This document shows positions 10,175 through 50,155 of a stretch of 55,042 bases of DNA, one piece after another. The notes beneath the pieces are model-generated. The model saw only the letters and a program-made list of their open reading frames with translations. It did not search any database and was not told the origin of the DNA. The DNA comes from a virus. Lineage: Duplodnaviria > Caudoviricetes. The stretch spans positions 1 through 55,042 of IMG/VR virus record IMGVR_UViG_3300044491_000241; one strand, written 5' to 3'. Numbering within the stretch: the stretch's first letter is position 1; each line of letters opens with the position of its first letter. Made by a program: the position numbers and the translations under genes.

Positions 10175-10368
10175 GCCTTAAATTATTAGTAAATAATAAA
10201 GACATCTGGGATTCTTTTGTAGAAGAACTGGATTCTAAACTAAATCGCATCCACACCCAAATAGAGCAATCTACAGCTATAGAAGACGTGTACAGGCTAC
10301 AGGGACATGCCGCCTGTCTTCGTAGATTAAAAAGACTGAGGGACGAAGTAAATGGTAAATCAGACTGA
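10171..10368 (+). CDS. Hypothetical protein downstream of portal
   Basis: ATGA overlap; YRLQG...L..L..LR motif. Confidence 0.7.
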   Translation: MSLKLLVNNKDIWDSFVEELDSKLNRIHTQIEQSTAIEDVYRLQGHAACLRRLKRLRDEVNGKSD

Positions 10369-13300
10369 AGAAGTTTTTGGAAACCCTAACCAAGTTGGTA
10401 TAGGTAGTGTTTCAAGTGCCAGACCACGAGGGGTAATGGGGAGCATACCCCTAAGTGATGCAACCAATGCTTTAGATGTTATTGCAGAAGACACAAAAAA
10501 TTCTAACAAATTAAAATTAAATGACAGTTTAAAAAAAGATGTTGAGTCTATACTTGCTAATGACGAAGAACCAGAGATTAGCCCCAGTACTCCTCCCGTT
10601 GAGGGTGGAATTGGCAGTGTAAGACCAAAGTCTAGACCAATCGTAAGACCAAGAGCTAGGCCAAAACCAAAAAGATTTAGTCCTGTTGATAAAGTTTTAG
10701 AACTTAACTATCTTTTAAAAGGTAAAGCAAACCCTCAATCAGAAACAACCAGAATAATATCTGGTCTTGACCAAAGAAACCCTGATCATCAAAAGACTAT
10801 AAAAGGTTTTTTTGATAGTGCTGTAGGTGGGGAGTCGGGGTTTGATCCAACAACACAAGCCTGGTGTGCTGCTTTTGTTTCCCATATCCTTGAAGAGCTT
10901 GGAGCAGATCCTTTACAATCAAAAGATAAATACGACAGACTTAGAGCAGACAAGTTTAAAAGCTATGGTACAGAGGTTAAACCTGACGGTATCAAAGAAG
11001 GTGACATAGTTGTTTTTGATTTTGATCAAGATGGTAAAGCAGACCACGTAACTTTTTACGCAGGTGATAGAATAACCTCTCAAGGTATGGGGGGTTACAT
11101 TAATGTTTTAGGTGGAAATCAAAGTGGACAGGTTAGCATTAGAGAAAACCATCCCTTTTACACTTGGAATAATGTAGCTGCTATCAGACGAGTTACGTAT
11201 AACGATATTGATTTTGATTTCACAAAAGAAATGGCGGAACGAGATCCTGTATTTAACGAGTTTATGCCTGACTACGCAGGTTCTTCCCAACCATCTCCAG
11301 CAACCTTCGATAAAGGTGGTTTAGCTCAACAAACAGAAGAGTCTTTGGGTTGGGCTGCGGAGGGAAAGAAACTCGCAGTAGATACCCCAGAGGTATCTTT
11401 TAGAGATGCTGCTACTTTTGTTGCTGAGATGACACCTATTGTTGGTGACGCTATGGCGGCTAAGGAAGTCTATGATGAACTACAGAAAGATGAGCCTAAC
11501 TATTACTTAGCAGGTGCGCTAGGCGGTGCGGCTCTTGTAGGTCTTGTTCCTGGCATAGGTGACGCCGCCGCTAAAGCTATTAAGAAGGGCGCTAGAGAAG
11601 TCTTTGATTTGGCAAGGCGCGTAGAGGTTGCCCCTGACACTATGGGGTCTGGCCTTGGTAATGTTAGATTAGCTCCTAAGGCAACAAGTAAAAGCAAACC
11701 TTCTTATACTGACGCAGAACTTTTAGAAGCAGATGACATTATTGATGAATGGGGTAAAGGAAATCTTACCAACACAGAGCTACGTAATAAAATGCGTGAC
11801 AAAGGTTTTGCTATAGAAAATAAAAGAATATCTCCCAAAATGTCAGGAGGTGATCTAGAAGTTGTTGGTCCTGACGGAAACATAATTCCTTGGCAAGACA
11901 TGCCACGTGGTTCAGAAGAAAGAATACCTATAAGACCAATTAACCAATCTAGATTAGAGGCTAGTGGTCTTCCTTACAAACAGGGTGGTGAGTTTACTGA
12001 CGCAAGAACAAAAGAAATACTAACTAATAAAAATGCAAGATCAGTTAACATAAAAGTAAAAACAAATGAACCTCCTAAAGGGGGGATGCCTCAAGCTTCT
12101 ATGGATGCAGCAGGACTAGACGTTGATGAAATAGGATCTTCTGGACCAAAGATATACAGTAACTTAGTTAAGCCAACATCAAAAGGTGGTAAAGCAGGTT
12201 GGAAGTGGCTTAGTAGAAAAGATGAAAACTTAGACACAAATACTCTTGTATCAGTGGTACAAAGAAATCAACATTACTTTACCCTTGAGGCTGACTTCAG
12301 TAAAGGCGCTAAACTACAAACCTATCCCAACAAAGTAGACGAGCCCAGACTAAGGCCCACTGTAAATGGACAATTAGAGTTTGATGAAGAAGTAGGGACT
12401 ATCTCCTTAAGGGGTAAAGAACATCCAGTCTATAGAAAAATAGTAGCTTTTAACCAAGGTGGCCAAGTAATGAATAATCAAATGGAAATGGCATTTATGA
12501 AGCAAGGTGGCATCAAAGACGATGGCATGAACAAAGATCCTGTTTCTGGTAATCCTATTCCTCCTGGTTCTATGGCTAAGGAAGTCAGAGATGATATTCC
12601 CGCTATGCTGTCTGAGGGTGAGTACGTAGTTCCTGCTGACGTTCTTCGTTTTTATGGGGTAAATTTCTTTGAGAATCTTCGTGGTCAAGCAAAACAGGGC
12701 TTGAACACAATGGAACAAAGTGGTAGGATTGGTGGTGAACCTCTTTCTCCCCAGCAAGTTCAACAAAATATGGGTAAGGCTCCAGTTACAGCTAACGCTG
12801 GGGTTTACATGGCTGGACAACCTCAAGGGCTACAGCAGTCACAGACAGCATCTCAGAACTTCAACCCTATGAACTACCCCATAGTGGGTGGCTCCACACT
12901 AAGGGGTGTGCAAGAAAGTGTAACAACCTTTAAGACATTTGTTAATTCTGTAGATGGGAGGACACAAATTGTAGAGTTTGTTGACGGTAAGATCAAAAAC
13001 CCAACAATGACAAAGTTTACTCAACCTCCTTATTTTGAACAAGGTTCCTCTGCTCTTAAGGATGCAAAGAAAGCTGCAGCACAGCCTACTTCTTCTGGTG
13101 GAGGTGGTGGTGGTGGCGCTCCCCCACCAGAACCTAAAGACCCTAACGAGTGGGCTGAAAAAATTACAGACCCTATGGCATGGGCAAACGAGAACCTACA
13201 AGGTAAAGCTAACACTATTCTTAGCACAATTAGTCTTGGTACAAGTGTAGCTAGAGTAAATGCTATGGCTATCGTAGCAGAAGCACAAGGTAAAAAAGAT

Positions 13301-13735
13301 TTAGCAGATCAACTTAGAACTAAAGCTAGAGAGTTTGTTGCAGCAAACCCAGTTCTTAACTCAATTCCTAATGCTTGGATTGACGGTGACAGAATTGCTG
13401 CTGACTTACAAAAAGACAAGAATATAGTTAATACCTTGTTTGTGCCTAAAGCTAGAAAAAAACAGATGGAAGTAGCAGAGGCTACACCAGAGTTTGATGT
13501 TACAAAATCTAAAGCTCCAGATGATGATAGCGGAAACTTTTTAAAGACTATTATGGCCGCAAATAAAGCAGCAAAAGACGCAGGTAAAACTGAAGTTAGT
13601 TCTACCATTACAAACGCAGGAACGGCAGAACAAGAAGTCTCTGGGGGAACACAAGCAGAACAAGACTATCTTACGTCTGCAGCAGCAGGTAACAAAGGCG
13701 GTCTAATGATGAAAAAAAATAGTAAGAAAAAATAG
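10352..13735 (+). CDS. Large modular virion protein with TIGR02594/NlpC-P60-like and pre-toxin-TG-like segments
   Basis: WCAAFV...GDIVVF...HVTF...VLGGNQS; TPIVGD...GLVPGIGD; DDIPAMLSEGEYVVPAD. Confidence 0.75.
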   Translation: MVNQTEEVFGNPNQVGIGSVSSARPRGVMGSIPLSDATNALDVIAEDTKNSNKLKLNDSLKKDVESILANDEEPEISPSTPPVEGGIGSVRPKSRPIVRPRARPKPKRFSPVDKVLELNYLLKGKANPQSETTRIISGLDQRNPDHQKTIKGFFDSAVGGESGFDPTTQAWCAAFVSHILEELGADPLQSKDKYDRLRADKFKSYGTEVKPDGIKEGDIVVFDFDQDGKADHVTFYAGDRITSQGMGGYINVLGGNQSGQVSIRENHPFYTWNNVAAIRRVTYNDIDFDFTKEMAERDPVFNEFMPDYAGSSQPSPATFDKGGLAQQTEESLGWAAEGKKLAVDTPEVSFRDAATFVAEMTPIVGDAMAAKEVYDELQKDEPNYYLAGALGGAALVGLVPGIGDAAAKAIKKGAREVFDLARRVEVAPDTMGSGLGNVRLAPKATSKSKPSYTDAELLEADDIIDEWGKGNLTNTELRNKMRDKGFAIENKRISPKMSGGDLEVVGPDGNIIPWQDMPRGSEERIPIRPINQSRLEASGLPYKQGGEFTDARTKEILTNKNARSVNIKVKTNEPPKGGMPQASMDAAGLDVDEIGSSGPKIYSNLVKPTSKGGKAGWKWLSRKDENLDTNTLVSVVQRNQHYFTLEADFSKGAKLQTYPNKVDEPRLRPTVNGQLEFDEEVGTISLRGKEHPVYRKIVAFNQGGQVMNNQMEMAFMKQGGIKDDGMNKDPVSGNPIPPGSMAKEVRDDIPAMLSEGEYVVPADVLRFYGVNFFENLRGQAKQGLNTMEQSGRIGGEPLSPQQVQQNMGKAPVTANAGVYMAGQPQGLQQSQTASQNFNPMNYPIVGGSTLRGVQESVTTFKTFVNSVDGRTQIVEFVDGKIKNPTMTKFTQPPYFEQGSSALKDAKKAAAQPTSSGGGGGGGAPPPEPKDPNEWAEKITDPMAWANENLQGKANTILSTISLGTSVARVNAMAIVAEAQGKKDLADQLRTKAREFVAANPVLNSIPNAWIDGDRIAADLQKDKNIVNTLFVPKARKKQMEVAEATPEFDVTKSKAPDDDSGNFLKTIMAANKAAKDAGKTEVSSTITNAGTAEQEVSGGTQAEQDYLTSAAAGNKGGLMMKKNSKKK

Positions 13736-18800: not shown

Positions 18801-21800
18801 ATGGCAGGTTATCAGAGAAAAAGTGCTGGGGATATTGTTGCGGGGGCGGTTGTTAAAGCTGCACCAGTAGACACAGAGTTTAATTGTCTAAGAGACGCAT
18901 TCAACGAATCCACAGGTCACAAACACGATGGATCTTCAACAGAAGGTGCTTACGTTCCTATTATCGCAGACTCAGACGCAAATAATAAAGTCTGTGTTGA
19001 TACATCAAATAATAGATTAAGCTTCTTTACAGAGGTTTCTTCTGCTGCGACTGAGCAAATGAGGGTTCAAGACGGAGCCATCGTACCTGTAACGGATGAT
19101 GACATTGACCTTGGTATTACAACTACAAACAGATTTAAAAATCTATTTCTATCAGGTAATGCTACGGTTGGAGGAACATCCACTGTAACAGGAAACAGTA
19201 CTTTTGCTGGTACTCTTGGAGTTACAGGTGTTGCTACTTTTTCTGATACAGTTTGTGTGCCAGCTTTTAAAGCTACAGGGACATCAACTCTAACTACTGT
19301 GGACATCAATGCAGGTAATATTGATGGCACTGTTATCGGTGCTTCTACTGCTGCTGCTGGCAGCTTTACTACAGTTAGTACGTCAGGACAGGGTACTTTT
19401 GCTACAGTCGATGTCAATGGCGGTACTATTGATGGTGTTATTATTGGCGGCACTACGCCAGGTCTTATAACTGGTACAACCATCACAGGTACTAGTCTTG
19501 TAGGTCCAGTTACAGGTAATGTCACAGGTAACATTACTGGTAACGTAACAGGTGACCTAACAGGTAATGTTGCAGGAAACGTAACAGGTGATGTCACTGG
19601 GGATCTCACAGGAAATGTTACAGGAGATGTAACAGGAGACCTGACTGGTAACGTTACAGGTAATGTAACTGGTAATGTAACTGGTGACTTGACAGGTGAC
19701 GTAACTGGAGATGTAACAGGTGATGTTACAGGCAATGTTACAGGAAACGTAACAGGGAATGTCACTGGTAACCTAACAGGAAATGTTACAGGTAACGTAA
19801 CTGGTGACTTAACTGGGGATGTTACTGGTGACTTAACTGGTAATGTTACTGGTGACTTAACTGGTGATGTCACAGGAGATGTTACTGGAGATCTGACTGG
19901 TAATGTTACTGGAAATGTTACAGGTGACGTAACTGGTGACGTAACTTCAACAGGAACGTCTACCTTTACAACCTTGCAGCTAACAGGGGATATGGATGCT
20001 AACAGTAATAAGATTACAAATTTAGCAGAGCCTGTTTCTGATTCTGATGCAGCCACAAAATTGTATGTAGATAATGCAGTTGAAGGTTTGGATGTAAAAG
20101 GTTCTGTTAGAGTTGCTACAACTGCAAACATTACTTTGAGTGGTACTCAAACTATTGATGGTATTGCTGTAGTTGCAGACAACAGAGTTCTTGTTAAAGA
20201 TCAAAGCACAGCTTCAGAGAATGGTGTGTACGTAGTTGCTGCAGGTGCTTGGTCTAGATCAGATGACGCAGATACTTTTGATAAACATGTAGGTGCTTTC
20301 TTCTTTGTCGAAGAAGGTACAACAAATGGTGACAATGGTTTTGTAGGCACTGCAGATTCTGGTGGTACTCTTGATACTACTGACATAACATTTGTACAAT
20401 TCTCAGGTGCAGGTCAGATTACAGCAGGTACTGGTCTTACTAAGTCTGGAAACACTATTAATGTTGTTACTGCTGACTCAGGGAGAATTGTAACAAATGC
20501 AGATAATATTGATCTTGCTACTACAGGTGTGAGTGCAGGAACTTATAAGTCTGTTACCACAGATGTTTATGGTCGTATTACAAGTGGTACAAATCCAACT
20601 ACTCTTTCTGGTTATGGTATTGCTGATGCCTATACAATTACATGCTTAGATACTTTACTTGATGCTAAGTTAGATGTAGCAGGAGATACAATGACTGGGA
20701 ACCTTTCAATGGGTTCTAACAAAGTCACATCTACTGCAACTCCAACAACTGATGATGACCTTACTCGTAAAGGTTACGTTGATAGTCAAGATGCTCTTAA
20801 GTTTAACTTAACTGGTGGGACTCTTACTGGTGATTTAACTCTTGGTAGTAATAAAGCCACATCTACAGCTACTCCTACAACAGATGATACTCTTACACGT
20901 AAGGGCTATGTTGATACTCAACGTGATACAAGACTAGCTTGTACAGGTGGGACTTTATCAGGAAGTGTAGAAACTACTTGTCCTATTATTTCTTGTTACA
21001 CACCTGCCAATGCATGTGACCTGACTAATAAGTGTTACGTTGATGGTATATTACAATCAGCTACTGCAGCCTGTACTTCTGCTGCTTGTGCATTAGCAAG
21101 TCAGACTGCTGCAGCAACCTCTGAAACAAATGCAAGTAACTCAGCTTCTGCTGCTGCTACTTCAGCCAATAATGCTGCTACATCTTATGACGATTTTGAT
21201 GATAGGTACCTTGGTGATAAGGCATCAAATCCCTCTGTTGATAACGATGGAGATGCCCTTCTGACAGGAGCAATCTACTGGAACTCAACAGACAATGCAC
21301 TAAAAATTTATACAGGTTCTGCATGGAACAGTGCAGCATTTACTCTTGGTGATGCTCTTACTGCTGTTTCTGAGGATACTTCTCCAACACTAGGTGGAAA
21401 CTTAGCAGGTAACTCTCAATGTATTACTGGTGTTGCAAACATTTGTGCTACTAACCTTTATGGCGCTGTAACAGGTAATGTGACAGGAAACGTAACTGGC
21501 AATGTTTCAGGTAATCTTACAGGTAATGTAACTTCTTCTGGCACAAGTTGTTTTGCTACAGTTTGTACAACTGGTAACAGTACTCTTGTAGGAAACCTTA
21601 CTGTTAATGGAAACACTACCCTAGGTAATGCAGCTAGTGACACTGTAACTCTTACAGCAGACGTTGCTTCTAATATTATTCCAAGTGCTGATAGCACTCA
21701 CAGCCTAGGTGACAGTTCTAACTACTGGTCACATGGATACATAGATGCTATCACAACAACAGGAGCAGTTGTAATTGGAGGAGATCTAACTGTTAATGGT

Positions 21801-22817
21801 ACAACCACTACTGTAGCTACGACAAACACAGTTGTATCAGATTCCTTGATAGAATTAGGAAATGGAACATCTGGTTCCCCATCTAATGACGCAGGTATTG
21901 TTATTGAACGTGGTAGCAGTGCCAACGCATTCATGGGTTTTGATGAGTCAGCAGACAAGTTTATTGTAGGTACAGGTACATTTACTGGTGCATCTACAGG
22001 AAACCTTTCTATTACAACAGGTACACTTGTAGCTAACGTAGAGGGTAATGTAACAGGAGATGTCACTGGTAATGCTGATACTGCAACAACACTAGAAACT
22101 GCACGTACAATAGGTGGTGTTTCTTTTAATGGTTCAGCTAACATAAACCTACCAGGTGTTAACACTGCAGGAAACCAGAACACATCTGGTAATGCAGCTA
22201 CAGCAACTGCTTGGGCTACAGCTAGAACACTTTGTATTTGTGGGGATGCTACAGGCTCTGCTTCTATTGATGGATCTGGTAATGTAAACTTGACGGTTGC
22301 AGTAGTGGATGATAGCCACAACCACACAGTAGCTAACGTTGATGGACTAGCTACCTGCTTATCTAATAAAGCTTCTACTACCTGTGCAGGTACTATTGTT
22401 ACCTGTTTAGCAGGTAAGGCAGCAATAGCTGGTGCAACTACTCAAAACTTTAGTGCGCTATGTGCAATTGGTGCAAATTGTATGATAGCCCCTGTTATTT
22501 GTGGTACGACCTGTGTCGTAGCACCTGACATCAATGCAACGTCTGACTGCAGATGCAAGAGTAACATTGTTACAGTTGAGAATGCTTACTGCAAGTTAGG
22601 TCAAATACGTGGGGTTAACTACAACTGGAAAGACTCAGGAAAATACACAATAGGTGTTATTGCACAAGAAGTAGAAGAAGTTCTTCCAGAACTTGTAACT
22701 ACAGATGACGATGGCATGAAGGCAGTAAACTATAACGGCATCGTAGGTGTTCTAGTTGAAACAGTGAAATGCCTTCAAAGCAAAGTAGAGGAACTAGAGA
22801 ATGGCTCTAAAGGTTAG
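18801..22817 (+). CDS. Long tail fibre with C-terminal peptidase S74 chaperone
   Basis: GHKHDG N-terminal anchor, TKxYVD repeats, xTG[ND] repeats, SDxRxKxNI...GVIAQEVE...VNY chaperone; about 28 Cys. Confidence 0.9.
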   Translation: MAGYQRKSAGDIVAGAVVKAAPVDTEFNCLRDAFNESTGHKHDGSSTEGAYVPIIADSDANNKVCVDTSNNRLSFFTEVSSAATEQMRVQDGAIVPVTDDDIDLGITTTNRFKNLFLSGNATVGGTSTVTGNSTFAGTLGVTGVATFSDTVCVPAFKATGTSTLTTVDINAGNIDGTVIGASTAAAGSFTTVSTSGQGTFATVDVNGGTIDGVIIGGTTPGLITGTTITGTSLVGPVTGNVTGNITGNVTGDLTGNVAGNVTGDVTGDLTGNVTGDVTGDLTGNVTGNVTGNVTGDLTGDVTGDVTGDVTGNVTGNVTGNVTGNLTGNVTGNVTGDLTGDVTGDLTGNVTGDLTGDVTGDVTGDLTGNVTGNVTGDVTGDVTSTGTSTFTTLQLTGDMDANSNKITNLAEPVSDSDAATKLYVDNAVEGLDVKGSVRVATTANITLSGTQTIDGIAVVADNRVLVKDQSTASENGVYVVAAGAWSRSDDADTFDKHVGAFFFVEEGTTNGDNGFVGTADSGGTLDTTDITFVQFSGAGQITAGTGLTKSGNTINVVTADSGRIVTNADNIDLATTGVSAGTYKSVTTDVYGRITSGTNPTTLSGYGIADAYTITCLDTLLDAKLDVAGDTMTGNLSMGSNKVTSTATPTTDDDLTRKGYVDSQDALKFNLTGGTLTGDLTLGSNKATSTATPTTDDTLTRKGYVDTQRDTRLACTGGTLSGSVETTCPIISCYTPANACDLTNKCYVDGILQSATAACTSAACALASQTAAATSETNASNSASAAATSANNAATSYDDFDDRYLGDKASNPSVDNDGDALLTGAIYWNSTDNALKIYTGSAWNSAAFTLGDALTAVSEDTSPTLGGNLAGNSQCITGVANICATNLYGAVTGNVTGNVTGNVSGNLTGNVTSSGTSCFATVCTTGNSTLVGNLTVNGNTTLGNAASDTVTLTADVASNIIPSADSTHSLGDSSNYWSHGYIDAITTTGAVVIGGDLTVNGTTTTVATTNTVVSDSLIELGNGTSGSPSNDAGIVIERGSSANAFMGFDESADKFIVGTGTFTGASTGNLSITTGTLVANVEGNVTGDVTGNADTATTLETARTIGGVSFNGSANINLPGVNTAGNQNTSGNAATATAWATARTLCICGDATGSASIDGSGNVNLTVAVVDDSHNHTVANVDGLATCLSNKASTTCAGTIVTCLAGKAAIAGATTQNFSALCAIGANCMIAPVICGTTCVVAPDINATSDCRCKSNIVTVENAYCKLGQIRGVNYNWKDSGKYTIGVIAQEVEEVLPELVTTDDDGMKAVNYNGIVGVLVETVKCLQSKVEELENGSKG
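19509..19940 (+). repeat. 36 tandem [VLI][TA]G[ND] tetrapeptide repeats
   Basis: Counted from the translation; codons vary between units. Confidence 0.9.
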
Positions 22818-23016
22818 TGGCACAGACGTAATAGACAATAGCAAGAATATACCATCAGGTACTCCATCAGTACAGGGTACTATAGTTACTGCTACAGTTC
22901 TTACGGCACCTTCAGGTAACACTGCAGGTAGACCTGCTTCCCCAAACACAGGCCACATCTACTTCGATACAGACGAAGGTAAGTTATTAGCTTACAACGG
23001 AACTGAATGGGCTTAA
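22801..23016 (+). CDS. Small tail-fibre-associated protein, paralogous to the N-terminus of the next gene
   Basis: PSG.TA.RP.SP.TG.IYFDTDE..L.AY.G..W is shared with the 23047 ORF. Confidence 0.75.
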   Translation: MALKVSGTDVIDNSKNIPSGTPSVQGTIVTATVLTAPSGNTAGRPASPNTGHIYFDTDEGKLLAYNGTEWA

Positions 23017-23046
23017 TTCACGATAGTCTTAGGACGGAGAATATAA

Positions 23047-24531
23047 ATGGCGTATAAGATTAATGGCACTACGGTTGTCGATAACAGCAGGAACGTATGT
23101 GCCTGTTGTGTTACCTCGTGTTGTATTACAGCTAGTTCTAGGATGGATGTACCATCAGGCGATACAGCCAGTAGACCAGGATCTCCTGCTACTGGTTCTA
23201 TTTATTTTGATACAGATGAAACTTCACTTGTAGCCTATGATGGTTCAGCTTGGGCTTCTGTAGGTGGTGGTGGATATCCTCAAATAGCTGCTCATTGCAA
23301 TGCTGTACCTACTATAAATGGTACAATTCAGGATAGGCAAGTAAAAGTACCAGTCTCTTTTAATAATATGGTCCACAGTATAAATGGTTCTTACAAAGCA
23401 GGTAATCCCTACAACAATTCTCTTTTTGTAGGTCTGAAAACAACAGGTACTACTCTAGAACTATGTAACGTCAGTGGCGGTGGTACTAGCACACTAGGTG
23501 CTTGGTTCACAGGAGGTAGTTTTGTATCCCCAGATAAAAATTTCTATTCTTTTAGTACTGGGGGTGAAAGTAATTTCTGTGTCTGCGGTAAAAGTTTTGG
23601 ATTCTCACCAGAAAAGATTTACCAGATGTCTTCCTGTAACAGGTCCACAAGTGTAGCTGGTACTATTATGACCCTAGGGGCTTATTCAGGTAACACCAAA
23701 ATATTTGGGATTCATGCGTCTGGGCATTTTGGTATGTGGTGTTGTACTGGCACTTTAATATGTATGGGTCGAATATGTCAGAACAATCAATCTTTTGCTA
23801 ATGCCTATGGTTTATTTACAACGTGTTCTGGTGATATTGGCCTGTTCCTTTGTAACGGTAAATTTATTGTTCATTTAGATGTTGATACTTTATCTATTCA
23901 ATGTCAGTTTTGCTACACCATTACAGAGCCTACAAAGATGGATGGGCAAGGTGGAGCACCAAGAGAAACAACGACTGCAGTTGGATTTCCTGGTTGCTGT
24001 AAGTACGGGTACGTTTGGGATAAAGTCAATTGTTGTATGTACAATATTATTTCTAGCAACGGCTCAAATCAGTTTGAAACCAAGCCAACTTGGATGTCTG
24101 TGAATGACAGTCTTTACTTTAAAACCTTTGGGTGCTACGGGGGTGGAAAATGTTGTACTAAACTAGAAAGGGTTAACGCAAATGGCACTAGAGACTGTTA
24201 TATAAGTGTTTGCGGTGGACTGAGTTATTTTTGGACCACTGATTTTGATACGTATATTGCTAATAATTTAGGTGAAAAGTTAATAAGTGTTCCTGGCACT
24301 GCCTGTGATAATGGGATATTTCCAGCATACGCCGTTAACGTAGACGTTAGTGTTAGTCATAGTGCGTGGAAAAGTGGAGTTTTAAGCTGTATTTTTCCTT
24401 CTGGTGGTGCCATGTCTTGCACAGCATCACCTGCTGCTAGTCAAGGCACACACAGTATTTACGTTGTGCAACTTAACTGTACCTACTGTATACAATCTTG
24501 TCTTTGTGTAACGGATGTTGTACGGACTTAA
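23047..24531 (+). CDS. Cys-rich tail fibre/receptor-binding protein
   Basis: GGAG RBS; MAYKINGTTVVDNSRN docking N-terminus; about 34 Cys in 494 aa. Confidence 0.75.
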   Translation: MAYKINGTTVVDNSRNVCACCVTSCCITASSRMDVPSGDTASRPGSPATGSIYFDTDETSLVAYDGSAWASVGGGGYPQIAAHCNAVPTINGTIQDRQVKVPVSFNNMVHSINGSYKAGNPYNNSLFVGLKTTGTTLELCNVSGGGTSTLGAWFTGGSFVSPDKNFYSFSTGGESNFCVCGKSFGFSPEKIYQMSSCNRSTSVAGTIMTLGAYSGNTKIFGIHASGHFGMWCCTGTLICMGRICQNNQSFANAYGLFTTCSGDIGLFLCNGKFIVHLDVDTLSIQCQFCYTITEPTKMDGQGGAPRETTTAVGFPGCCKYGYVWDKVNCCMYNIISSNGSNQFETKPTWMSVNDSLYFKTFGCYGGGKCCTKLERVNANGTRDCYISVCGGLSYFWTTDFDTYIANNLGEKLISVPGTACDNGIFPAYAVNVDVSVSHSAWKSGVLSCIFPSGGAMSCTASPAASQGTHSIYVVQLNCTYCIQSCLCVTDVVRT

Positions 24532-24549
24532 TTGTTAAAAGCAAAGACC

Positions 24550-24578
24550 TTGCCTTTGCCTATAAAAAGTACTAATAT
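24550..24578 (+). promoter_or_regulatory. Candidate promoter for the modification cassette
   Basis: TTGCCT-N17-TAATAT in the intergenic gap. Confidence 0.4.
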
Positions 24579-24630
24579 ACTCACCAAAACCTGTGAGGTT
24601 TTGTAAAGATAATAATAAGAAAGAGTATGC

Positions 24631-25557
24631 ATGAAAACTGTCTTTATGATTGACGGTGGTGCGGGGAGAGCTATTGCAGCAATTCCTGCTCTCATCAAGT
24701 ACAGTAAGAGTAATCCTGACTTTAGGGTTATAGTACATGGTTGGGATACTTTGTACTGGGGTATTCCTGAGCTTCATGACAAGGTGTTTAACCCAGACCA
24801 GAAGGGTGCCTTTGAGCAGTTTTTTATGGATGCTGATATAGTTCTTTCCCCAGAACCTTACAGAGTACCTGGGTACTACAGACAAGAAAAGTCTTTGTCA
24901 GAGGCCTTTGACTACTTGATTAACGAAACAGACGATCACTCTGACCTTGTTGCTCCTATGCTTAAAACAAATAGAAACGAGGAGTTACAAGCTGCTAACT
25001 TTATGCAGCAAGTTAGGCAGCAGCAACAGAAGCAGAAGACTATTGTTATACAGCCCTTTGGTCGATCAATAGAAAAGCCACAAGAGGGTGTTCTACTAGA
25101 CCAGTCTTCTCGTTCTATTAATCCTGATACGTATATCAAACTGGTAAAGAAGTTAGCTACTAAATACAACCTAGTGTTGTTTGCAGAGAAGGCCTTCTGG
25201 ATGGAAGAAGATACGTACACAATGAAGCCTGAGGCTGACTTGCGTATGTGGACTGCCTTTATTGATGCAGCAGACTATTTCATTGGTTGTGACTCTGTTG
25301 GTCAACATATGGCTCGTGCTATGAATAAACCTGGGACTGTTGTCATTGGTTCTACCTTTGCTATCAACACTTCCTATCCTAATTACTTTAACATTATTGA
25401 AAGGGATGTTCAGAAGAAATACTCACCTATTCGTATCTCAGGTCTTGAGTCTCACTTGGCAGATAGAGCTAATGAAGCTACTGTTGAGTTCACAGACGAA
25501 GAGATCAACAAGATGTACGAGTCTATTGTAAAAGACATTGAAAAGAAGGTGAAGTAA
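24631..25557 (+). CDS. GT9-like (heptosyltransferase-fold) glycosyltransferase
   Basis: N-terminal GGAGR...IPAL (family G.GD...P.L); C-terminal ADYFIGCDSVGQHMARAMNKP matching G.DSG..H.A.A...P. Confidence 0.75.
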   Translation: MKTVFMIDGGAGRAIAAIPALIKYSKSNPDFRVIVHGWDTLYWGIPELHDKVFNPDQKGAFEQFFMDADIVLSPEPYRVPGYYRQEKSLSEAFDYLINETDDHSDLVAPMLKTNRNEELQAANFMQQVRQQQQKQKTIVIQPFGRSIEKPQEGVLLDQSSRSINPDTYIKLVKKLATKYNLVLFAEKAFWMEEDTYTMKPEADLRMWTAFIDAADYFIGCDSVGQHMARAMNKPGTVVIGSTFAINTSYPNYFNIIERDVQKKYSPIRISGLESHLADRANEATVEFTDEEINKMYESIVKDIEKKVK

Positions 25558-25558
25558 T

Positions 25559-27274
25559 ATGAACATTCTAGGAATTAACCCAGGACATAACGGTGCAGCT
25601 GCTCTCCTTGTAGACGGTGAGCTTGAGTTCTACATTGAAGAAGAACGTCTGTCTCGTAGTAAGTATGACGGTAACCCCTTCATGGGTATTCTTGAGGGAT
25701 TAAAGTATGGTATTGACGTTCTGGTACTGGGTGGAACAAGCCCACAGCACCCTAGTCTGCCTTGGACAGGGGAAGATCCTTACAGTGCGTTAATCAGGAA
25801 GCACAACCCTAAAGTCCAAGTTATAAACGTAGGGCATGCACATCACCTTGGTCATGCTGCCTCATCCTTCTACAACTCAGGCTTTGAGGATGCTGCTGCT
25901 GTTATTGTGGACGGGTCTGGTACACGCCAAGAAATCCAAGTAAATGAAGAGGGTCAGAAGAACCCTGGTTTTGAGACTGAGACAATCTTCAACTGTGACT
26001 ACGAAGAGGGTATCAAGCCAGTGTTTCAGTCCTTCGGTGGTAATGCTGATACACAACGTGTAGTAGGGGATGCCATTGAGATGGACTCAGCTATTACCTT
26101 AGTTAAAGCATACGAGGCTGTATCTGAGTACTTAGGCTTTGGGTTCATCGAAGCAGGTAAGACTATGGGTCTTGCACCTTACGGTAAAAACGATGATCTT
26201 ATCCCTTCTCTTTTCTACGGTGGGCGTGGTAACAAGAACGTCTTTGTTCCTAACTATCCTGCTGGTGCTCATATTGACCACACACGTCACCCATACCTGA
26301 CACTGAAGCAAGACCCACGTACTTGGCACAATGACCCTTCTAAAGTAACAGATGCTGCCAAGAACCTAGCATGGGCTGTCCAGGATGAGACACAACGTCT
26401 TGTTGGTGACCTGATTGAGAAGGCTGTTAAGCTTACAGGCAAGAAGAACATCGTTATTGCTGGTGGCTATGGACTCAACTGTGTAGCCAATTACTACTAC
26501 CAGAAACGGTTCCCTGACCTGAACATCTATATAGATCCCATCTCACACGATGGTGGTACTGCACTGGGTCTAGCACAGTTGGTTCACTACACAGAGACTA
26601 AGGACAAGACTATTCGTCCACTAAAGACCCTGTACCTTGGACCTGAACGTGAGGAGTCATACGACTTCGGTGATATCAAAACAACAGACGTAACACCAGA
26701 AGACATTGCTGCTCTTCTCGTTGATCGTAAGATTGTTACTATGTTCCAAGGTCGATCAGAGGCTGGTCCTCGTGCTCTAGGTAATCGTTCTATCTTGTAC
26801 GATCCCACTGACCCTAAGGGTAAGGATTACGTCAACAAGGTAAAAGGTAGAGAGTGGTTTCGTCCCTTTGCTGGTTCTATGTTGCAGGAGGATTTTGAGG
26901 AATGGTTCGAGACATACGGAATGAAAGAGTCTCCCTTCATGATGTATGCAATGGACTTCAAGCTGGCTAAACATGGTGAAGTTCCTGCTATCACACACGT
27001 AGACGGTACTTGCCGTATTCAGACTGTGACAAAAGAACAGAACCCTGTGTACTACAGCCTGATCAAAGTCTTCAAAGAGAAGACTGGTGTACCTATAGTG
27101 TTCAACACTAGCTTCAACCTTGCAGGTGAGCCTCTCGTTGAGACCATTGCGGATGCTGTACATACAATCAAGAACTCAGACCTTGAGTACCTGTACGTAC
27201 CAGAAGTAGGGAAGTTGTTGCACTACCCCTACAACGATAAGGAAGTAGAGATAGTTGAGGAGAAAGCTGCTTAA
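25559..27274 (+). CDS. Carbamoyltransferase, NodU/CmcH/TobZ family
   Basis: ILGIN.GH...EEERLSR.K, HH.GHA, VDG.G, GK.MGLAPYG, GG..LNC.AN, GPRALGNRS, RE.FRPFA, HVDGT.R.QTV, NTSFN..GEP. Confidence 0.95.
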   Translation: MNILGINPGHNGAAALLVDGELEFYIEEERLSRSKYDGNPFMGILEGLKYGIDVLVLGGTSPQHPSLPWTGEDPYSALIRKHNPKVQVINVGHAHHLGHAASSFYNSGFEDAAAVIVDGSGTRQEIQVNEEGQKNPGFETETIFNCDYEEGIKPVFQSFGGNADTQRVVGDAIEMDSAITLVKAYEAVSEYLGFGFIEAGKTMGLAPYGKNDDLIPSLFYGGRGNKNVFVPNYPAGAHIDHTRHPYLTLKQDPRTWHNDPSKVTDAAKNLAWAVQDETQRLVGDLIEKAVKLTGKKNIVIAGGYGLNCVANYYYQKRFPDLNIYIDPISHDGGTALGLAQLVHYTETKDKTIRPLKTLYLGPEREESYDFGDIKTTDVTPEDIAALLVDRKIVTMFQGRSEAGPRALGNRSILYDPTDPKGKDYVNKVKGREWFRPFAGSMLQEDFEEWFETYGMKESPFMMYAMDFKLAKHGEVPAITHVDGTCRIQTVTKEQNPVYYSLIKVFKEKTGVPIVFNTSFNLAGEPLVETIADAVHTIKNSDLEYLYVPEVGKLLHYPYNDKEVEIVEEKAA

Positions 27275-27918
27275 GGTAGCTTCTCAACAAAGCTAAGAAG
27301 GTTGTCGAAGACCTTTGTCTTCTTTCTTAACTTCTCCTTAGAGAACTTTGATAACTCTTCTTCAGTAACCACGCCATGTCCTGTACGCACTAGGATCGGG
27401 GTGGCACCAATTCTTTCAGCAGCTTTGAGGTCAGACATCTTGTCCCCTACATAGAAACCACCCTGTTTAAAACGGGCCTTTCCCTCAAAGATTTCTTTCT
27501 CTGCTCTTTGAAACATACCAATATTAGGTTTGGCATATATATCTTCTTTTAAGGAGGACTCAGAATAAAAGAGGCCATCAATCGTGTATATACCAGCCCT
27601 GCCAAATATCTCAAACATACGTTGATGCACAGATTCTACCTGCTCATGGGTTTGTAACCCCTTAATAATACCACCTTGGTTAGTAAGTATAACTACTTTG
27701 TACCCTTTAATACGTAGCTTATGAATGGCTGCTAAAGACTCAGGTATAATTTCAAAGTCTTCGGGGTCTGTGATGTAGTGTCCTTTGTCTACGTTGATAA
27801 CACCGTCACGATCTAACCCTACAATAGCTTTAGGAAAGACTGTAGGCCAATCTGGTGGTAACTCCTGCTGAGGTTGTTGACTTGGTTCTTGTGTGATAAT
27901 ATGCTTGAATCTAGACAT
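27271..27918 (-). CDS. gmhB: D,D-heptose 1,7-bisphosphate phosphatase (HAD family)
   Basis: LDRDGVIN, TNQGGI, KPNIGM, VGDKMSDLKAA, LVRTGHG motifs. Confidence 0.9.
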   Translation of the reverse strand: MSRFKHIITQEPSQQPQQELPPDWPTVFPKAIVGLDRDGVINVDKGHYITDPEDFEIIPESLAAIHKLRIKGYKVVILTNQGGIIKGLQTHEQVESVHQRMFEIFGRAGIYTIDGLFYSESSLKEDIYAKPNIGMFQRAEKEIFEGKARFKQGGFYVGDKMSDLKAAERIGATPILVRTGHGVVTEEELSKFSKEKLRKKTKVFDNLLSFVEKLP

Positions 27919-27935
27919 ACTAGGGTATTTACCTC

Positions 27936-28337
27936 ATGAAGAAAGTTTTTGTTAACGGTGCATTCGATGTGTTGCACTCTGGTCACCTAGATCTTCTTGA
28001 GTTTGCAGAGATGTTAGGCGGTCATTTGCTAGTAGCTATTGACACAGATAGGCGTATTGAGTATAACAAGGGTATCGGGAGACCTTTTAATTCTTTGTCA
28101 ATACGTAAACATATAATGTCTATGTTAAAGCCTGTCAATAGTGTCAAAGTATTTGATACAGACGAGGACTTAGTAGGTATTATAAAAGATTACCAGCCTG
28201 ACGTAATGGTAAAAGGATCTGACTGGAAGGGAAAGACAATACTTGGGGAGGAGTACTGCAAAGAAATAGTATTCTACGAGAGAACCAATGGTCAGTCCAC
28301 AACAAAAACAATTCAAGATTTTATTGATAGGCGATAG
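27936..28337 (+). CDS. hldC: Heptose-1-phosphate nucleotidyltransferase (RfaE domain II/HldC)
   Basis: NG.FDVLH.GH, KG..RP, PDV.VKG.DW, STT motifs. Confidence 0.85.
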   Translation: MKKVFVNGAFDVLHSGHLDLLEFAEMLGGHLLVAIDTDRRIEYNKGIGRPFNSLSIRKHIMSMLKPVNSVKVFDTDEDLVGIIKDYQPDVMVKGSDWKGKTILGEEYCKEIVFYERTNGQSTTKTIQDFIDRR

Positions 28338-29043
28338 TTGCTACGATGATTACCACTACGGCAGCATAAACAGAATAAGCCCAGAAGCTCCTGTCCCTGT
28401 CTTAGATATGGATAGAGTTGTTACAAAAAAGGGCATGACTTTTAATGTCTTTAATAACGTACTTGCTCTTGGTGCAGAAGCTCACATCATAACAGAGTTC
28501 AGTGAAAGAAAACACAGGTATCTTGACAGTAAGACTGGTCAGCAACTCCTTAGAGTAGACGAGAAGATTGATAAGAAGATTGTTGATACGGCAGAGGAAA
28601 ACCTTAACGATTACGATGTAGTCATTGTCTCAGACTATAACAAGGGTTTCTTCAACGAAGATGACATCACTGAAATTATAAGTAAGTATGATGGTCCCAT
28701 TTTTGTTGATACTAAGAAGAGAGATCTATCTATCTTTGATGGATGCTTTGTTAAGATTAATCAGTATGAGTACGAAGCCTCTGAAAGGCTGACAGAAGAA
28801 CTCATAGTCACCTACGGCTCAAAGAAAGTCGAGTACAAAAACAAGACCTACACCCCTCCTAAAGTGGGAGCCTACGATGTGTGTGGAGCAGGTGATACAT
28901 TTTTAGCTGCTCTTGCCTATAAGTACTGTGAAGAATATAATATGGATGAAGCTATAAAGTTTGCAATGGTTGCTGCTTCACTTACAGTACAACACATAGG
29001 TGTGTATGCACCCACACTAGAGGAAATACAAAATGCGGCTTGA
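28288..29043 (+). CDS. hldA: Heptose-7-phosphate kinase (RfaE domain I/HldA, PfkB family)
   Basis: IGD...D.Y..G...RISPEAPVPV, QQLLRVD, SDYNKG, DVCGAGDT. Confidence 0.9.
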   Translation: MVSPQQKQFKILLIGDSCYDDYHYGSINRISPEAPVPVLDMDRVVTKKGMTFNVFNNVLALGAEAHIITEFSERKHRYLDSKTGQQLLRVDEKIDKKIVDTAEENLNDYDVVIVSDYNKGFFNEDDITEIISKYDGPIFVDTKKRDLSIFDGCFVKINQYEYEASERLTEELIVTYGSKKVEYKNKTYTPPKVGAYDVCGAGDTFLAALAYKYCEEYNMDEAIKFAMVAASLTVQHIGVYAPTLEEIQNAA

Positions 29044-29386
29044 GGGCGTAGTGGAAAAGGGTTGGGGGTCTGAGTTGATCTGGGCAACCAACGACAAGTA
29101 TTGCGGTAAGTTCATGAACTTTAAGCAGGGTGCTAAGTTCTCAATGCACTTCCACAGAGAGAAAGATGAGACTTGGTTTGTTCTTACTGGTAAGTTCTTA
29201 GTAACTTGGATTGATACTGATGATGCAAGTGAGCACGTAGAAGAGCTTAACGAGGGTGACACTTGGCATAACCCACCTCTGGTTCCACACCGCATTACCT
29301 GCCTAGAAGAAGGAGTAGTTGTTGAAGTATCTACACCAGACTCTGTTGAGGATAACTATCGTGTAGCTAAGGGCGACAGCCAATAA
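29033..29386 (+). CDS. Cupin (sugar isomerase/epimerase-like)
   Basis: KGWG.E, SMHFH..KDETW and P...HR...E.ST cupin motifs. Confidence 0.8.
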   Translation: MRLEGVVEKGWGSELIWATNDKYCGKFMNFKQGAKFSMHFHREKDETWFVLTGKFLVTWIDTDDASEHVEELNEGDTWHNPPLVPHRITCLEEGVVVEVSTPDSVEDNYRVAKGDSQ

Positions 29387-30156
29387 TGAAGATTTTAGTT
29401 ACTGGTGCAAGTGGGTTCATTGGTCAGAACATGGTCACTGGACTCAGAGAAGAGCACGAAGTTATACCTCATGAGTGGGGTCAGACGATCTCTAAGGTAA
29501 ATGAGGTAGATTGGGTTGTACACTTAGGTGCCATAAGTTCTACTGTAGAACAAAATATAAGTAAGATATATAAGCAAAACCTAGACTTCTCTATTAATCT
29601 CTATGAGGAGTGTATAAAGAACAACGTAAATTTTCAGTTTGCTAGTAGTGCTTCTGTGTACGGGTTGAAGTCATCCTTCAAGGAGAGTGATCCTCTTGAT
29701 CCCCAGAACCACTACGCTCGTAGCAAGGCGATGTTTGAGAAATACGTAGAGCTAAGAAAAGCTCCTATTATTACTCAGACGTTTCGATACTTCAACGTGT
29801 ATGGGCCACACGAAGACCACAAAGGCGGTCAGGCAAGCCCTCATACTCAATTTACTAAACAGGCTAAGGAGACTGGTCTTATAAAACTCTTTGAGGGATC
29901 AGAGAAATATAAGAGAGACTTCATAAACGTAGCTCAGATTGTAGACCACCACAAACGTTTCTTTTCTGTAGAGGAGTCAGGTGTCTGGAACATGGGTACG
30001 GGTGTAGCTAAAAGCTTTTATGACGTGGCTAAAGAGATAGCCCGATACCATGCAGCTAAACTAGAGTACATCAAAATGCCACAGGTCTTAAAAAATAACT
30101 ACCAAGAATTTACACAAGCAAACACGTATAAGCTTCGTAAGACTTTATTGCTATAA
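29386..30156 (+). CDS. hldD: ADP-L-glycero-D-manno-heptose 6-epimerase-like SDR
   Basis: TGASGFIG, HLGAISST, ASSASVYG, YARSK, RYFNVYGP.E.HKG, RDFI. Confidence 0.85.
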   Translation: MKILVTGASGFIGQNMVTGLREEHEVIPHEWGQTISKVNEVDWVVHLGAISSTVEQNISKIYKQNLDFSINLYEECIKNNVNFQFASSASVYGLKSSFKESDPLDPQNHYARSKAMFEKYVELRKAPIITQTFRYFNVYGPHEDHKGGQASPHTQFTKQAKETGLIKLFEGSEKYKRDFINVAQIVDHHKRFFSVEESGVWNMGTGVAKSFYDVAKEIARYHAAKLEYIKMPQVLKNNYQEFTQANTYKLRKTLLL

Positions 30157-50078: not shown

Positions 50079-50155
50079 TGGCCCACCCTGCAGGACTCGA
50101 ACCTGCAACCTACTGCTTAGAAGGCAGTTGCTCTATCCAGTTGAGCTAAGGATGG
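50079..50155 (-). tRNA. tRNA-Arg(UCU)
   Basis: Acceptor stem CCATCCT/AGGGTGG, D arm AGCTCAACTGGATAGAGC, anticodon arm ACTGC-CTTCTAA-GCAGT, TTCGAGT T-loop, encoded CCA. Confidence 0.95.

Follow-up and report, generated by a model that had tools for sequence, protein, structure and literature searches.

Several described systems bear on the locus reported here. The autotransporter heptosyltransferases TibC and AAH are GT9-like enzymes of the GT-B class of glycosyltransferases (GT) that use ADP-heptose to place sugars at multiple positions of a surface protein; TibC has an iron finger with a four-cysteine site, its acceptors are serines in autotransporter repeats, and we know of no carbamoylation in either system. 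The glycocin S-glycosyltransferases SunS, ThuS and GccA are GT2 (GT-A) enzymes that place a hexose on one or two cysteines of a small peptide, and they provide a precedent for a sugar on cysteine sulfur in a secreted bacterial product. Mycobacteriophages encode glycosyltransferases that O-glycosylate their own virions (capsid and tail tube, with Ser/Thr-rich tails). Finally, in lipopolysaccharide (LPS) core synthesis an ADP-heptose pathway, the GT9 transferases WaaC and WaaF and, in Pseudomonas, WapO (PA5005) form a set; according to the relevant part of a published account, the second heptose of that core is carbamoylated in Pseudomonas, a modification ascribed to WapO, a putative carbamoyltransferase (PMC8005017). 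A counterpart of this set is present in the 55,042-base viral sequence analysed here (IMG/VR record IMGVR_UViG_3300044491_000241; hereafter the window, which is the whole virus record and is estimated to be 98% complete), where genes for a GT9-fold transferase, a carbamoyltransferase, four heptose-pathway-like enzymes and a cupin form a cassette directly after two tail-fibre genes with unusual cysteine content.

The major capsid protein of the window is 80% identical to those of Roseobacter phages CRP-9 and CRP-13 and 70% identical to that of Puniceispirillum phage HMO-2011, and the window therefore represents an HMO-2011-type marine podophage. A plus-strand structural arm (6449-39472) encodes terminase, portal, capsid, tail proteins, fibres and large unnamed virion-type proteins, and a minus-strand arm from 39990 encodes a ribonucleotide reductase, a Cas4-like nuclease, DNA polymerase, primase-helicase and thymidylate synthase. 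The cassette is packed within the structural arm with every gene except the GmhB-like one on the structural strand, and a preliminary description made from the letters of the sequence was thus right in setting it outside the DNA-metabolism half. The same description gave the fibre reading frames and their anomalous cysteine content correctly (by our count 28 of 1338 and 34 of 494 residues), and the gene identities in its order hold, with two corrections: the GmhB-like gene is on the minus strand, and a 71-residue open reading frame (ORF) lies between the two fibre genes. The genes downstream of the cassette that it called ejection genes have no family match, and that name reflects their position only. 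It also listed DNA modification, with heptose added to phage DNA bases. We found no support for this; the cassette is beside fibre genes in the structural arm and away from the replication arm, the transferase has a GT9 fold, and we assign the idea a negligible likelihood. To our knowledge the link between cysteine-rich fibres and a heptose/carbamoyl cassette is new, and we consider it the likeliest explanation, at a likelihood not quite reaching even, that the module glycosylates the phage's own cysteine-rich fibre tips with carbamoyl-heptose.

Association of cysteine-rich fibre proteins with the cassette

Fibre 1 (18801..22817, plus strand; 1338 residues, 2.1% cysteine) is a proximal long tail fibre with a C-terminal intramolecular (endosialidase-type) chaperone domain (Pfam Peptidase_S74, 8.6e-14, residues 1248-1300) and many matches to PHROG tail-fibre families; 25 of its cysteines lie beyond residue 600. 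Fibre 2 (23047..24531, plus strand; 494 residues, 6.9% cysteine) is a distal fibre or receptor-binding protein with a cysteine-clustered N-terminal adaptor and a fast-diverging cysteine-rich body. A Pfam search with it gave no family, and its homologues have N-termini that are 80-92% identical, followed by cysteine-rich bodies that cannot be aligned. The 71-residue ORF (22801..23016, plus strand; no cysteine) shares 17 nucleotides (nt) with the end of fibre 1, has PHROG matches (phrog_20787 and phrog_1325) in common with the fibre 2 N-terminus, and resembles the fibre 2 adaptor but without its cysteine cluster; it is kept as an ORF of 71-72 residues and 0% cysteine across many related loci. 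For comparison, 13 further proteins of the structural arm (6449-39472) were tallied, and each has 0-3 cysteines (e.g. 1 in 1127, 1 in 1153 and 0 in 1168 residues). Fibre 1 also contains a 12-nt tandem repeat of 36 copies (19512-19945) encoding four-residue T-G-N/D-V/L units, and a 354-residue minus-strand ORF that overlaps it (19067-20131) is probably an artefact of the repeat.

Loci for comparison were fetched using either the transferase or a conserved tail protein (tailB) as anchor, with phage records included, and are given L-numbers where they need to be told apart. Scanning IMG/VR with the window transferase gave 38 loci at 65-93% identity; 36 could be assessed, the other two having less than 1.5 kb upstream, and by gene layout six of the 38 duplicate another (two in each of two sets and one in two more). 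Directly upstream of the transferase in 35 of the 36 there is an ORF of at least 150 residues with 8.5-12.7% cysteine, some of these ORFs being 1141-1156 residues long with about 130 cysteines. The scan with tailB gave 80 loci, most of them too short to judge, and in the five that lack the cassette and reach the next structural gene (L079, L080, L097, L116 and L117) the maximum in the fibre region is 0.3-2.3% cysteine. The isolates CRP-9 and HMO-2011 lack the transferase and likewise have no cysteine-rich protein; their fibre-region proteins of at least 200 residues have at most 1.1% cysteine, and the highest share at any length is 3.2%, from five cysteines in a 157-residue protein. Cysteine content thus co-varies with the cassette among related phages, as the preliminary description had proposed be checked. 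The same is seen in fibre 1, a backbone gene with orthologues everywhere, which has 0.9-4.7% cysteine in most cassette-bearing relatives and 0.0-0.1% in those without the cassette; at a few cassette-bearing loci fibre 1 is cysteine-free and extra cysteine-rich proteins are present. Across all fetched loci, a cysteine content of 6% or more is found in 108 of 855 distinct ORFs of at least 150 residues that lie within 5 kb of a homologous transferase, compared with three of 738 elsewhere, and cysteine-rich ORFs therefore lie beside the transferase more often than expected by chance.

The cysteine-rich proteins have fibre adaptor motifs at their N-termini. In L004 and L024 the cysteine-rich gene is followed by one for a tail-fibre assembly chaperone (PF16778), an arrangement that is frequent in HMO-type loci and that marks the cysteine-rich protein as a fibre tip.

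L040 is the single exception among the 36 loci: the cassette is kept and the fibres have 0.2-0.3% cysteine. This locus looks like a natural test case for the link, and it is what would be expected were the target not the virion but the host envelope. In that explanation carbamoyl-heptose is added during infection to a host surface glycan (the LPS core or another polysaccharide), blocking superinfection or keeping progeny off lysed cells, and the cassette and receptor-binding genes form a joint host-range island. It accounts neither for the 7-13% cysteine of the fibre proteins beside the cassette, which come from two or more unrelated families, nor for the gain of cysteine by backbone fibre 1 solely where the cassette is present, and the genes are in the late structural arm, away from the early genes. 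We judge host envelope modification rather unlikely, while giving it serious consideration. In gene content, L040 (4391-9912) has the transferase, the carbamoyltransferase and four heptose genes with no GmhB, and a 397-residue tip protein followed by a fibre assembly chaperone.

The pairing extends beyond the close relatives. The most numerous viruses of the sea include HMO-2011-type podoviruses and T4-like cyanomyoviruses, and the transferase is also found in the latter and in single-cell virus contigs. In S-CAM3, P-SSM2, S-SSM7, S-CAM1, AG-345-O18 and AG-345-P14 it is followed by a carbamoyltransferase, and HldC-like, kinase, cupin and epimerase genes are present downstream in five of the six and upstream in AG-345-O18. 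Each of these six records encodes, one to three genes upstream of the transferase, between one and three proteins of 260-760 residues and 9-12% cysteine. The cysteine-rich proteins that were scanned from the cyanomyoviruses belong to a glycine-rich fibre-tip family (Gly_rich_2, PF21722, phrog_4205) that is unrelated to fibre 2. The converse also holds, in that all eleven phage records with a homologue of the P-SSM2 cysteine-rich protein come from transferase-positive phages. We note that the S-SSM7 cassette (L125, 14977-21967) is interrupted by genes for a second carbamoyltransferase, a tryptophan halogenase, DNA endonuclease V, a PF05175-domain protein and two 2-oxoglutarate-Fe(II) oxygenases.

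A profile scan of the wider transferase family added 80 loci at 35-47% identity to one distant member (IMG/VR scans with three single distant transferases as queries gave no matches). When any protein of at least 6% cysteine within 4 kb upstream is scored as a cysteine-rich neighbour, 105 loci can be assessed: 62 have both an adjacent carbamoyltransferase and such a neighbour, 14 the carbamoyltransferase only, five the neighbour only, and 24 neither (8, 1, 1 and 9 respectively as clusters at 60% identity). A protein of this kind is thus missing from 14 of the 76 carbamoyltransferase-adjacent loci and from 24 of the 29 others, and the transferase family can therefore do without cysteine-rich neighbours. 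Several of the 14 instead have giant proteins of 3.4-5.6% cysteine, and their flanks are free of heptose genes. Where the carbamoyltransferase is missing, arrays of RCC1-like propellers (2.4-8.6% cysteine) lie upstream, beside sulfotransferase and GT2 genes, and a GT4-type gene is upstream in L163, a carbamoyltransferase-adjacent locus; placement of these transferases within larger sugar clusters is a further point in favour of a host surface target. The RCC1-like beta-propeller paralogues are in arrays of three or four in L130, L137 and L141, all with distant transferases, and in L137 the sulfotransferase and GT2 genes are among them.

The same counts bear on direct S-carbamoylation, in which the carbamoyltransferase acts on the fibre cysteines and the heptose branch serves something else. 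HypF, a distant relative of the enzyme, acts on the C-terminal cysteine of HypE, and cysteine-rich neighbours are far commoner where the carbamoyltransferase is adjacent (62 of 76 loci, compared with five of 29). However, the window enzyme is by sequence nearest to small-molecule O-carbamoyltransferases (TobZ, GdmN, the novobiocin enzyme and NodU), and the heptose genes and GT9 enzyme that co-occur in most loci are left without a role; we regard this explanation as very improbable.

How many independent events underlie the association was examined on two trees. On the transferase tree, carbamoyltransferase adjacency changes three times and the cysteine-rich trait eight times, and an independent-pair test had three pairs (p 1), too few contrasts. 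On the tail-protein (tailB) tree the cassette changes three times, and the cysteine-rich trait follows in about 2.5 of the three contrasts and opposes in none; again there are three pairs (p 0.25) and too few contrasts. Because the trees contain no more than about three independent gains or losses, the tests stay short of formal significance, and shared descent accounts for much of the raw association count. The cassette/cysteine link is consistent and rests on few independent events. One could also suppose no biochemical link at all, the fibres being disulfide-knotted or metal-binding receptor-binding domains that harden after lysis in oxic seawater, and the cassette being independent cargo that settles at the same recombination-prone spot and is passed on with it. 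The small number of events per tree and the exceptions in both directions in the wider family favour this; the recurrence of the pairing in podoviruses and myoviruses, with non-homologous cysteine-rich proteins and different cassette gene orders, argues against it, as does the concentration of cysteine-rich ORFs within 5 kb of the transferase. We consider such a coincidence unlikely.

The transferase and its relation to known enzymes

The transferase gene (24631..25557, plus strand) encodes a protein of 308 residues with one cysteine, which model, profile and fold matches assign as a GT9-fold glycosyltransferase and putative heptosyltransferase. It has 2538 relatives in the protein collection and matches phrog_8954 (4.5e-84); its Pfam PF01075 score of 18.4 bits is under the 22-bit cut-off, and GT9 is found by Pfam (E 0.01 or better; best 2.4e-8) in 33 of the 63 diverse homologues that make up the family alignment. 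An AlphaFold2 (AF2) model has a predicted local distance difference test score (pLDDT) of 97.6. Foldseek searches with this model placed WaaF (2.7e-11), TibC (3e-10), WaaC and a Veillonella GT9 protein on top, and the top 30 matches shown are GT9 throughout. In VIA-align comparisons the highest Z scores are 23.9 for 3tov, 21.9 for WaaF, 21.2 for TibC and 19.7 for WaaC, with GT9 structures overall at 19.5-23.9 and the remaining GT-B enzymes at 11.9 or less; three plant NDH-PSI (NADH dehydrogenase-like/photosystem I) supercomplex chains have Z scores of 18.5-19.5. The family profile aligns its D-S-x-G-x-H-x-A stretch, 'iDSvgqHiA', with 'nDSGLMHVA' of WaaF and 'vDTGLSHLT' of WaaC, a C-terminal D-(S/T)-G-x-x-H-x-A block that we take to be the nucleotide-sugar block, and D221 and H226 are invariant across the 63 sequences. 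The predicted structure thus bears out the earlier assignment as GT9-like. It leaves the acceptor class undistinguished between a lipid-linked sugar and a protein, with WaaF and WaaC as near as TibC. Judging from the adjacent HldA/GmhB/HldC/HldD-like genes, the donor may be ADP-L-glycero-beta-D-manno-heptose, and it is genomic linkage to the fibre genes alone that suggests a protein as acceptor.

The match to TibC (root mean square deviation 2.9 over 263 residues, about 11% sequence identity) covers TibC residues 97-394, and the phage enzyme is without the N-terminal part. A protein with one cysteine cannot hold a four-cysteine iron site, and together with the start of the match at residue 97 this indicates that the phage enzyme is not a TibC-type iron enzyme. 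The glycocin enzymes differ by description in both class and scale, since the phage enzyme is GT9 (GT-B) by its model, heptose is the presumed sugar, and the candidate acceptors range in length from about 215 to 1458 residues, with tens to more than 100 cysteines. The mycobacteriophage systems share phage glycosyltransferases that decorate the phage's own virion proteins, but have other hosts, enzymes, sugars and targets, and are not known to have such a sugar-nucleotide cassette or cysteine-rich targets.

The comparison with WaaC and WaaF also provides points in favour of host envelope modification. GT9 enzymes of known function are mostly LPS-core heptosyltransferases, the WaaF/WaaC match is no worse than that to TibC, and the nucleotide-sugar motif is common to both. 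Carbamoyl-heptose is a known unit of the Pseudomonas LPS core, as the section on WapO describes (PMC8005017). In addition, the parts of a 2010 cyanophage comparison that deal with these genes class T4 gene clusters (T4-GCs) 304, 305, 307 and 308 among 'LPS genes' of unknown role and state that whether these function is not known (PMC3037559); in the P-SSM2 cassette they correspond to the genes for the HldC-like enzyme, the kinase, the cupin and the epimerase. Unlike waaC and waaF, however, the phage genes are situated among tail-fibre genes of lytic marine phages and coupled to cysteine-rich fibre proteins, and the window protein falls under the Pfam cut-off for GT9. The usual acceptors may also be missing: the passages of a review on marine Synechococcus WH8102 and CC9311 describe LPS without heptose and without Kdo (PMC4515613). 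WH8102 is the host of Sf-FS3, a transferase-positive phage, so on that account at least one host does not have the classical acceptor of GT9 enzymes. Searching the literature for a link between cysteine-rich fibres and a heptose/carbamoyl cassette, we found no description of one, nor of receptor-binding proteins with 7-13% cysteine.

The cysteine pattern and a proposed mechanism

Three considerations lead us to favour action on the virion: the cassette lies within the structural arm, which is late, the cysteine-rich genes are followed by ones for tail-fibre assembly chaperones, and marine Synechococcus LPS is, in the review passages cited, free of heptose and Kdo (PMC4515613). Expressed late, the module would act on the phage's own fibres. 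The HldA-like kinase, GmhB-like phosphatase, HldC-like adenylyltransferase and HldD-like epimerase would convert a heptose phosphate to ADP-heptose, with the cupin possibly providing the isomerase step, a GmhA gene being absent. The GT9-fold transferase would then move heptose to the distal, fast-evolving cysteine-rich fibre proteins during cytoplasmic assembly, and the TobZ/NodU-type enzyme would put a carbamoyl group on a hydroxyl of the fibre-bound heptose, as occurs in the Pseudomonas LPS core on heptose number two. The extreme cysteine content, with its labile positions, would belong to the same system, the thiols serving either as acceptors or as cross-links of a glycan-covered receptor-binding domain. 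The more specific version, in which the thiols are the acceptor sites, the GT9 enzyme S-links heptose to them and the TobZ-type enzyme carbamoylates the sugar, is in our view improbable as it stands; were it so, cysteine would be a motif-free address missing from the rest of the cysteine-poor virion. The likely benefit of decoration would be a shielded or altered receptor-binding surface, giving resistance to proteases or oxidation, a different adsorption spectrum, or a reduced tendency to stick to debris.

In an alignment of the fibre 2 family (A1; 11 sequences, 549 columns) each sequence has 34-44 cysteines, the number being kept while the positions drift: cysteine occurs in 111 of the columns, six of which have it in all eleven sequences and 37 in one only. 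Among 89 dereplicated cysteine-rich proteins the count is odd in 43, a random parity, and there is an excess of CC and CxC (z 12 and 9 respectively). Where fibre 1 is compared with its cysteine-free orthologues, cysteine stands in place of Ala, Thr, Ser, Leu, Gly and Gln at near background rates. Taken together, the pattern is not that of a fixed framework of disulfides, nor that of a strict acceptor motif, and is compatible with a mix of structural and decorated cysteines. For the explanation without a biochemical link the pattern again cuts both ways. The CC and CxC clustering and the conservation of cysteine described below are in its favour, and the random parity and fast turnover of positions are not; nor does the window genome contain any thiol-oxidase or thioredoxin-fold gene (Erv1/ALR, glutaredoxin and thioredoxin genes were looked for).

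The idea that the phage decorates its own fibres with carbamoylated heptose, as the preliminary description had it, is thus strengthened by the genomic association and the GT9 fold and weakened by L040 and the few independent events. Besides these, the wider-family exceptions and the role of shared descent, several further results weigh against it. Cysteine is the best conserved residue class in A1 (64% against 43% overall), which points to a fixed structural role of many cysteines, for example in disulfides or metal sites. No clear acceptor motif was found around cysteine in the 89 proteins, just the CC/CxC clustering and a 1.3-fold excess of N-x-C, and the residues exchanged for cysteine in fibre 1 show no preference for Ser or Thr. 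An AF2 model of fibre 2 built from A1 gave no fold (pLDDT 41.8); a low-confidence ESM Atlas model resembles a beta-propeller (template modelling score about 0.55), and a profile comparison of fibre 2 with the RCC1-like propellers beside distant transferases indicated no relation (probability 0.2%). The heptose enzymes keep the names first given to them as best matches, but every one is under its NCBIfam equivalog cut-off, and no SIS-domain GmhA is present in the 98%-complete genome, which leaves four of the five pathway enzymes. Donor sugar, acceptor and linkage are all ones that we infer. The virion proteome of the 2010 study, as its relevant part describes it, covers S-SM1 with data from two other phages (PMC3037559), and in the portions of the literature covered we found no virion proteome of a cassette-bearing phage.

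If fibre decoration with carbamoyl-heptose does take place, it would explain receptor-binding proteins of 7-13% cysteine with up to 134 or more cysteines per chain, and would shift the cassette genes from host metabolism, where the passages on 'LPS genes' place them (PMC3037559), to virion chemistry. The coat could affect host range and virus decay, and a sulfur link would be a new protein modification. With thiols as acceptors, receptor-binding proteins could mutate freely yet stay coated, and neither the S-linked heptose nor the thiol-addressed glycan coat on a virus would have a precedent, in phages some of which belong to the ocean's most abundant. Four cassette-bearing cyanophages were isolated on cultured hosts (S-CAM1 on WH7803, S-SSM7 on WH8109, P-SSM2 on NATL1A and S-CAM3 on a Synechococcus host), so the hypothesis is directly testable.

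The carbamoyltransferase, heptose genes and other features

The carbamoyltransferase (25559..27274, plus strand; 571 residues) is of the TobZ/NodU/CmcH type, with both Pfam halves present: Carbam_trans_C (4.4e-62; 209.1 bits, cut-off 27) and Carbam_trans_N (2.3e-22; 80.4 bits, cut-off 24). Its PDB sequence matches are to 7xb6 and TobZ at about 2e-52 (TobZ 2.1e-52), and then to novobiocin carbamoyltransferase and GdmN. It is not a NodU equivalog (NF041651, 145.2 bits, cut-off 1000). The GmhB-like HAD phosphatase (27271..27918, minus strand; 215 residues) matches NF006506, heptose 1,7-bisphosphate 7-phosphatase (3.2e-37; 127.8 bits, cut-off 178). It is followed on the plus strand by an HldC-like heptose-1-phosphate adenylyltransferase (27936..28337; 133 residues; TIGR02199 8.3e-28, 97 bits, cut-off 181.5; phrog_7878 4.5e-39) and an HldA-like heptose-7-phosphate kinase (28288..29043; 251 residues; TIGR02198 6.8e-42, 143.7 bits, cut-off 345; Pfam PfkB). 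The last gene of the cassette (29386..30156, plus strand) encodes an HldD-like short-chain dehydrogenase/epimerase of 256 residues that matches TIGR02197, ADP-glyceromanno-heptose 6-epimerase (5.1e-64; 216.4 bits, cut-off 274.6), and in which GxxGxxG and YxxxK can be read.

Between the HldA- and HldD-like genes is one for a metal-type cupin (29033..29386, plus strand; 117 residues), with Pfam matches (E 0.01 or better) to Cupin_2 and Cupin_1, a weak one to MannoseP_isomer, and ones to DMSP_lyase and Cupin_7. It has an HxH...E...H pattern. PHROGs labels it 'cysteine dioxygenase', an assignment that we rejected as there is no such Pfam family match and, by sequence, the top PDB match is to oxalate decarboxylase, in its cupin domain. 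In viral clusters of look-alikes, mannose-6-phosphate or lyxose isomerase families are found in 13-27% of members, and a metal cupin of about 113-134 residues is present in nearly every fetched locus where HldC/HldA-like genes are seen. A sugar isomerase or epimerase is thus more likely than a cysteine dioxygenase. Because GmhA is absent and isomerase families are among the viral look-alikes, the cupin may replace GmhA as heptose-7-phosphate isomerase, a suggestion we offer as a lead only. In cyanophages, ORFs of 106-116 residues annotated as 'phosphoheptose isomerase' (L001, 15870-16190; L002, 15970-16314; L123, 7089-7439) have no SIS match and one weakly resembles a HAD phosphatase domain (E 0.002), so this annotation looks wrong.

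A terminator-like hairpin is predicted by consensus scan only at 24580..24597 (plus strand), within the 99 nt that separate fibre 2 from the transferase gene. The sole tRNA gene, checked with recoding of cysteine codons in mind, is a tRNA-Arg(TCT) at 50079-50155 on the minus strand. The 1127-residue structural-arm protein (10352-13735) has an endolysin-like stretch at residues 160-265, and is possibly a virion-borne wall hydrolase.

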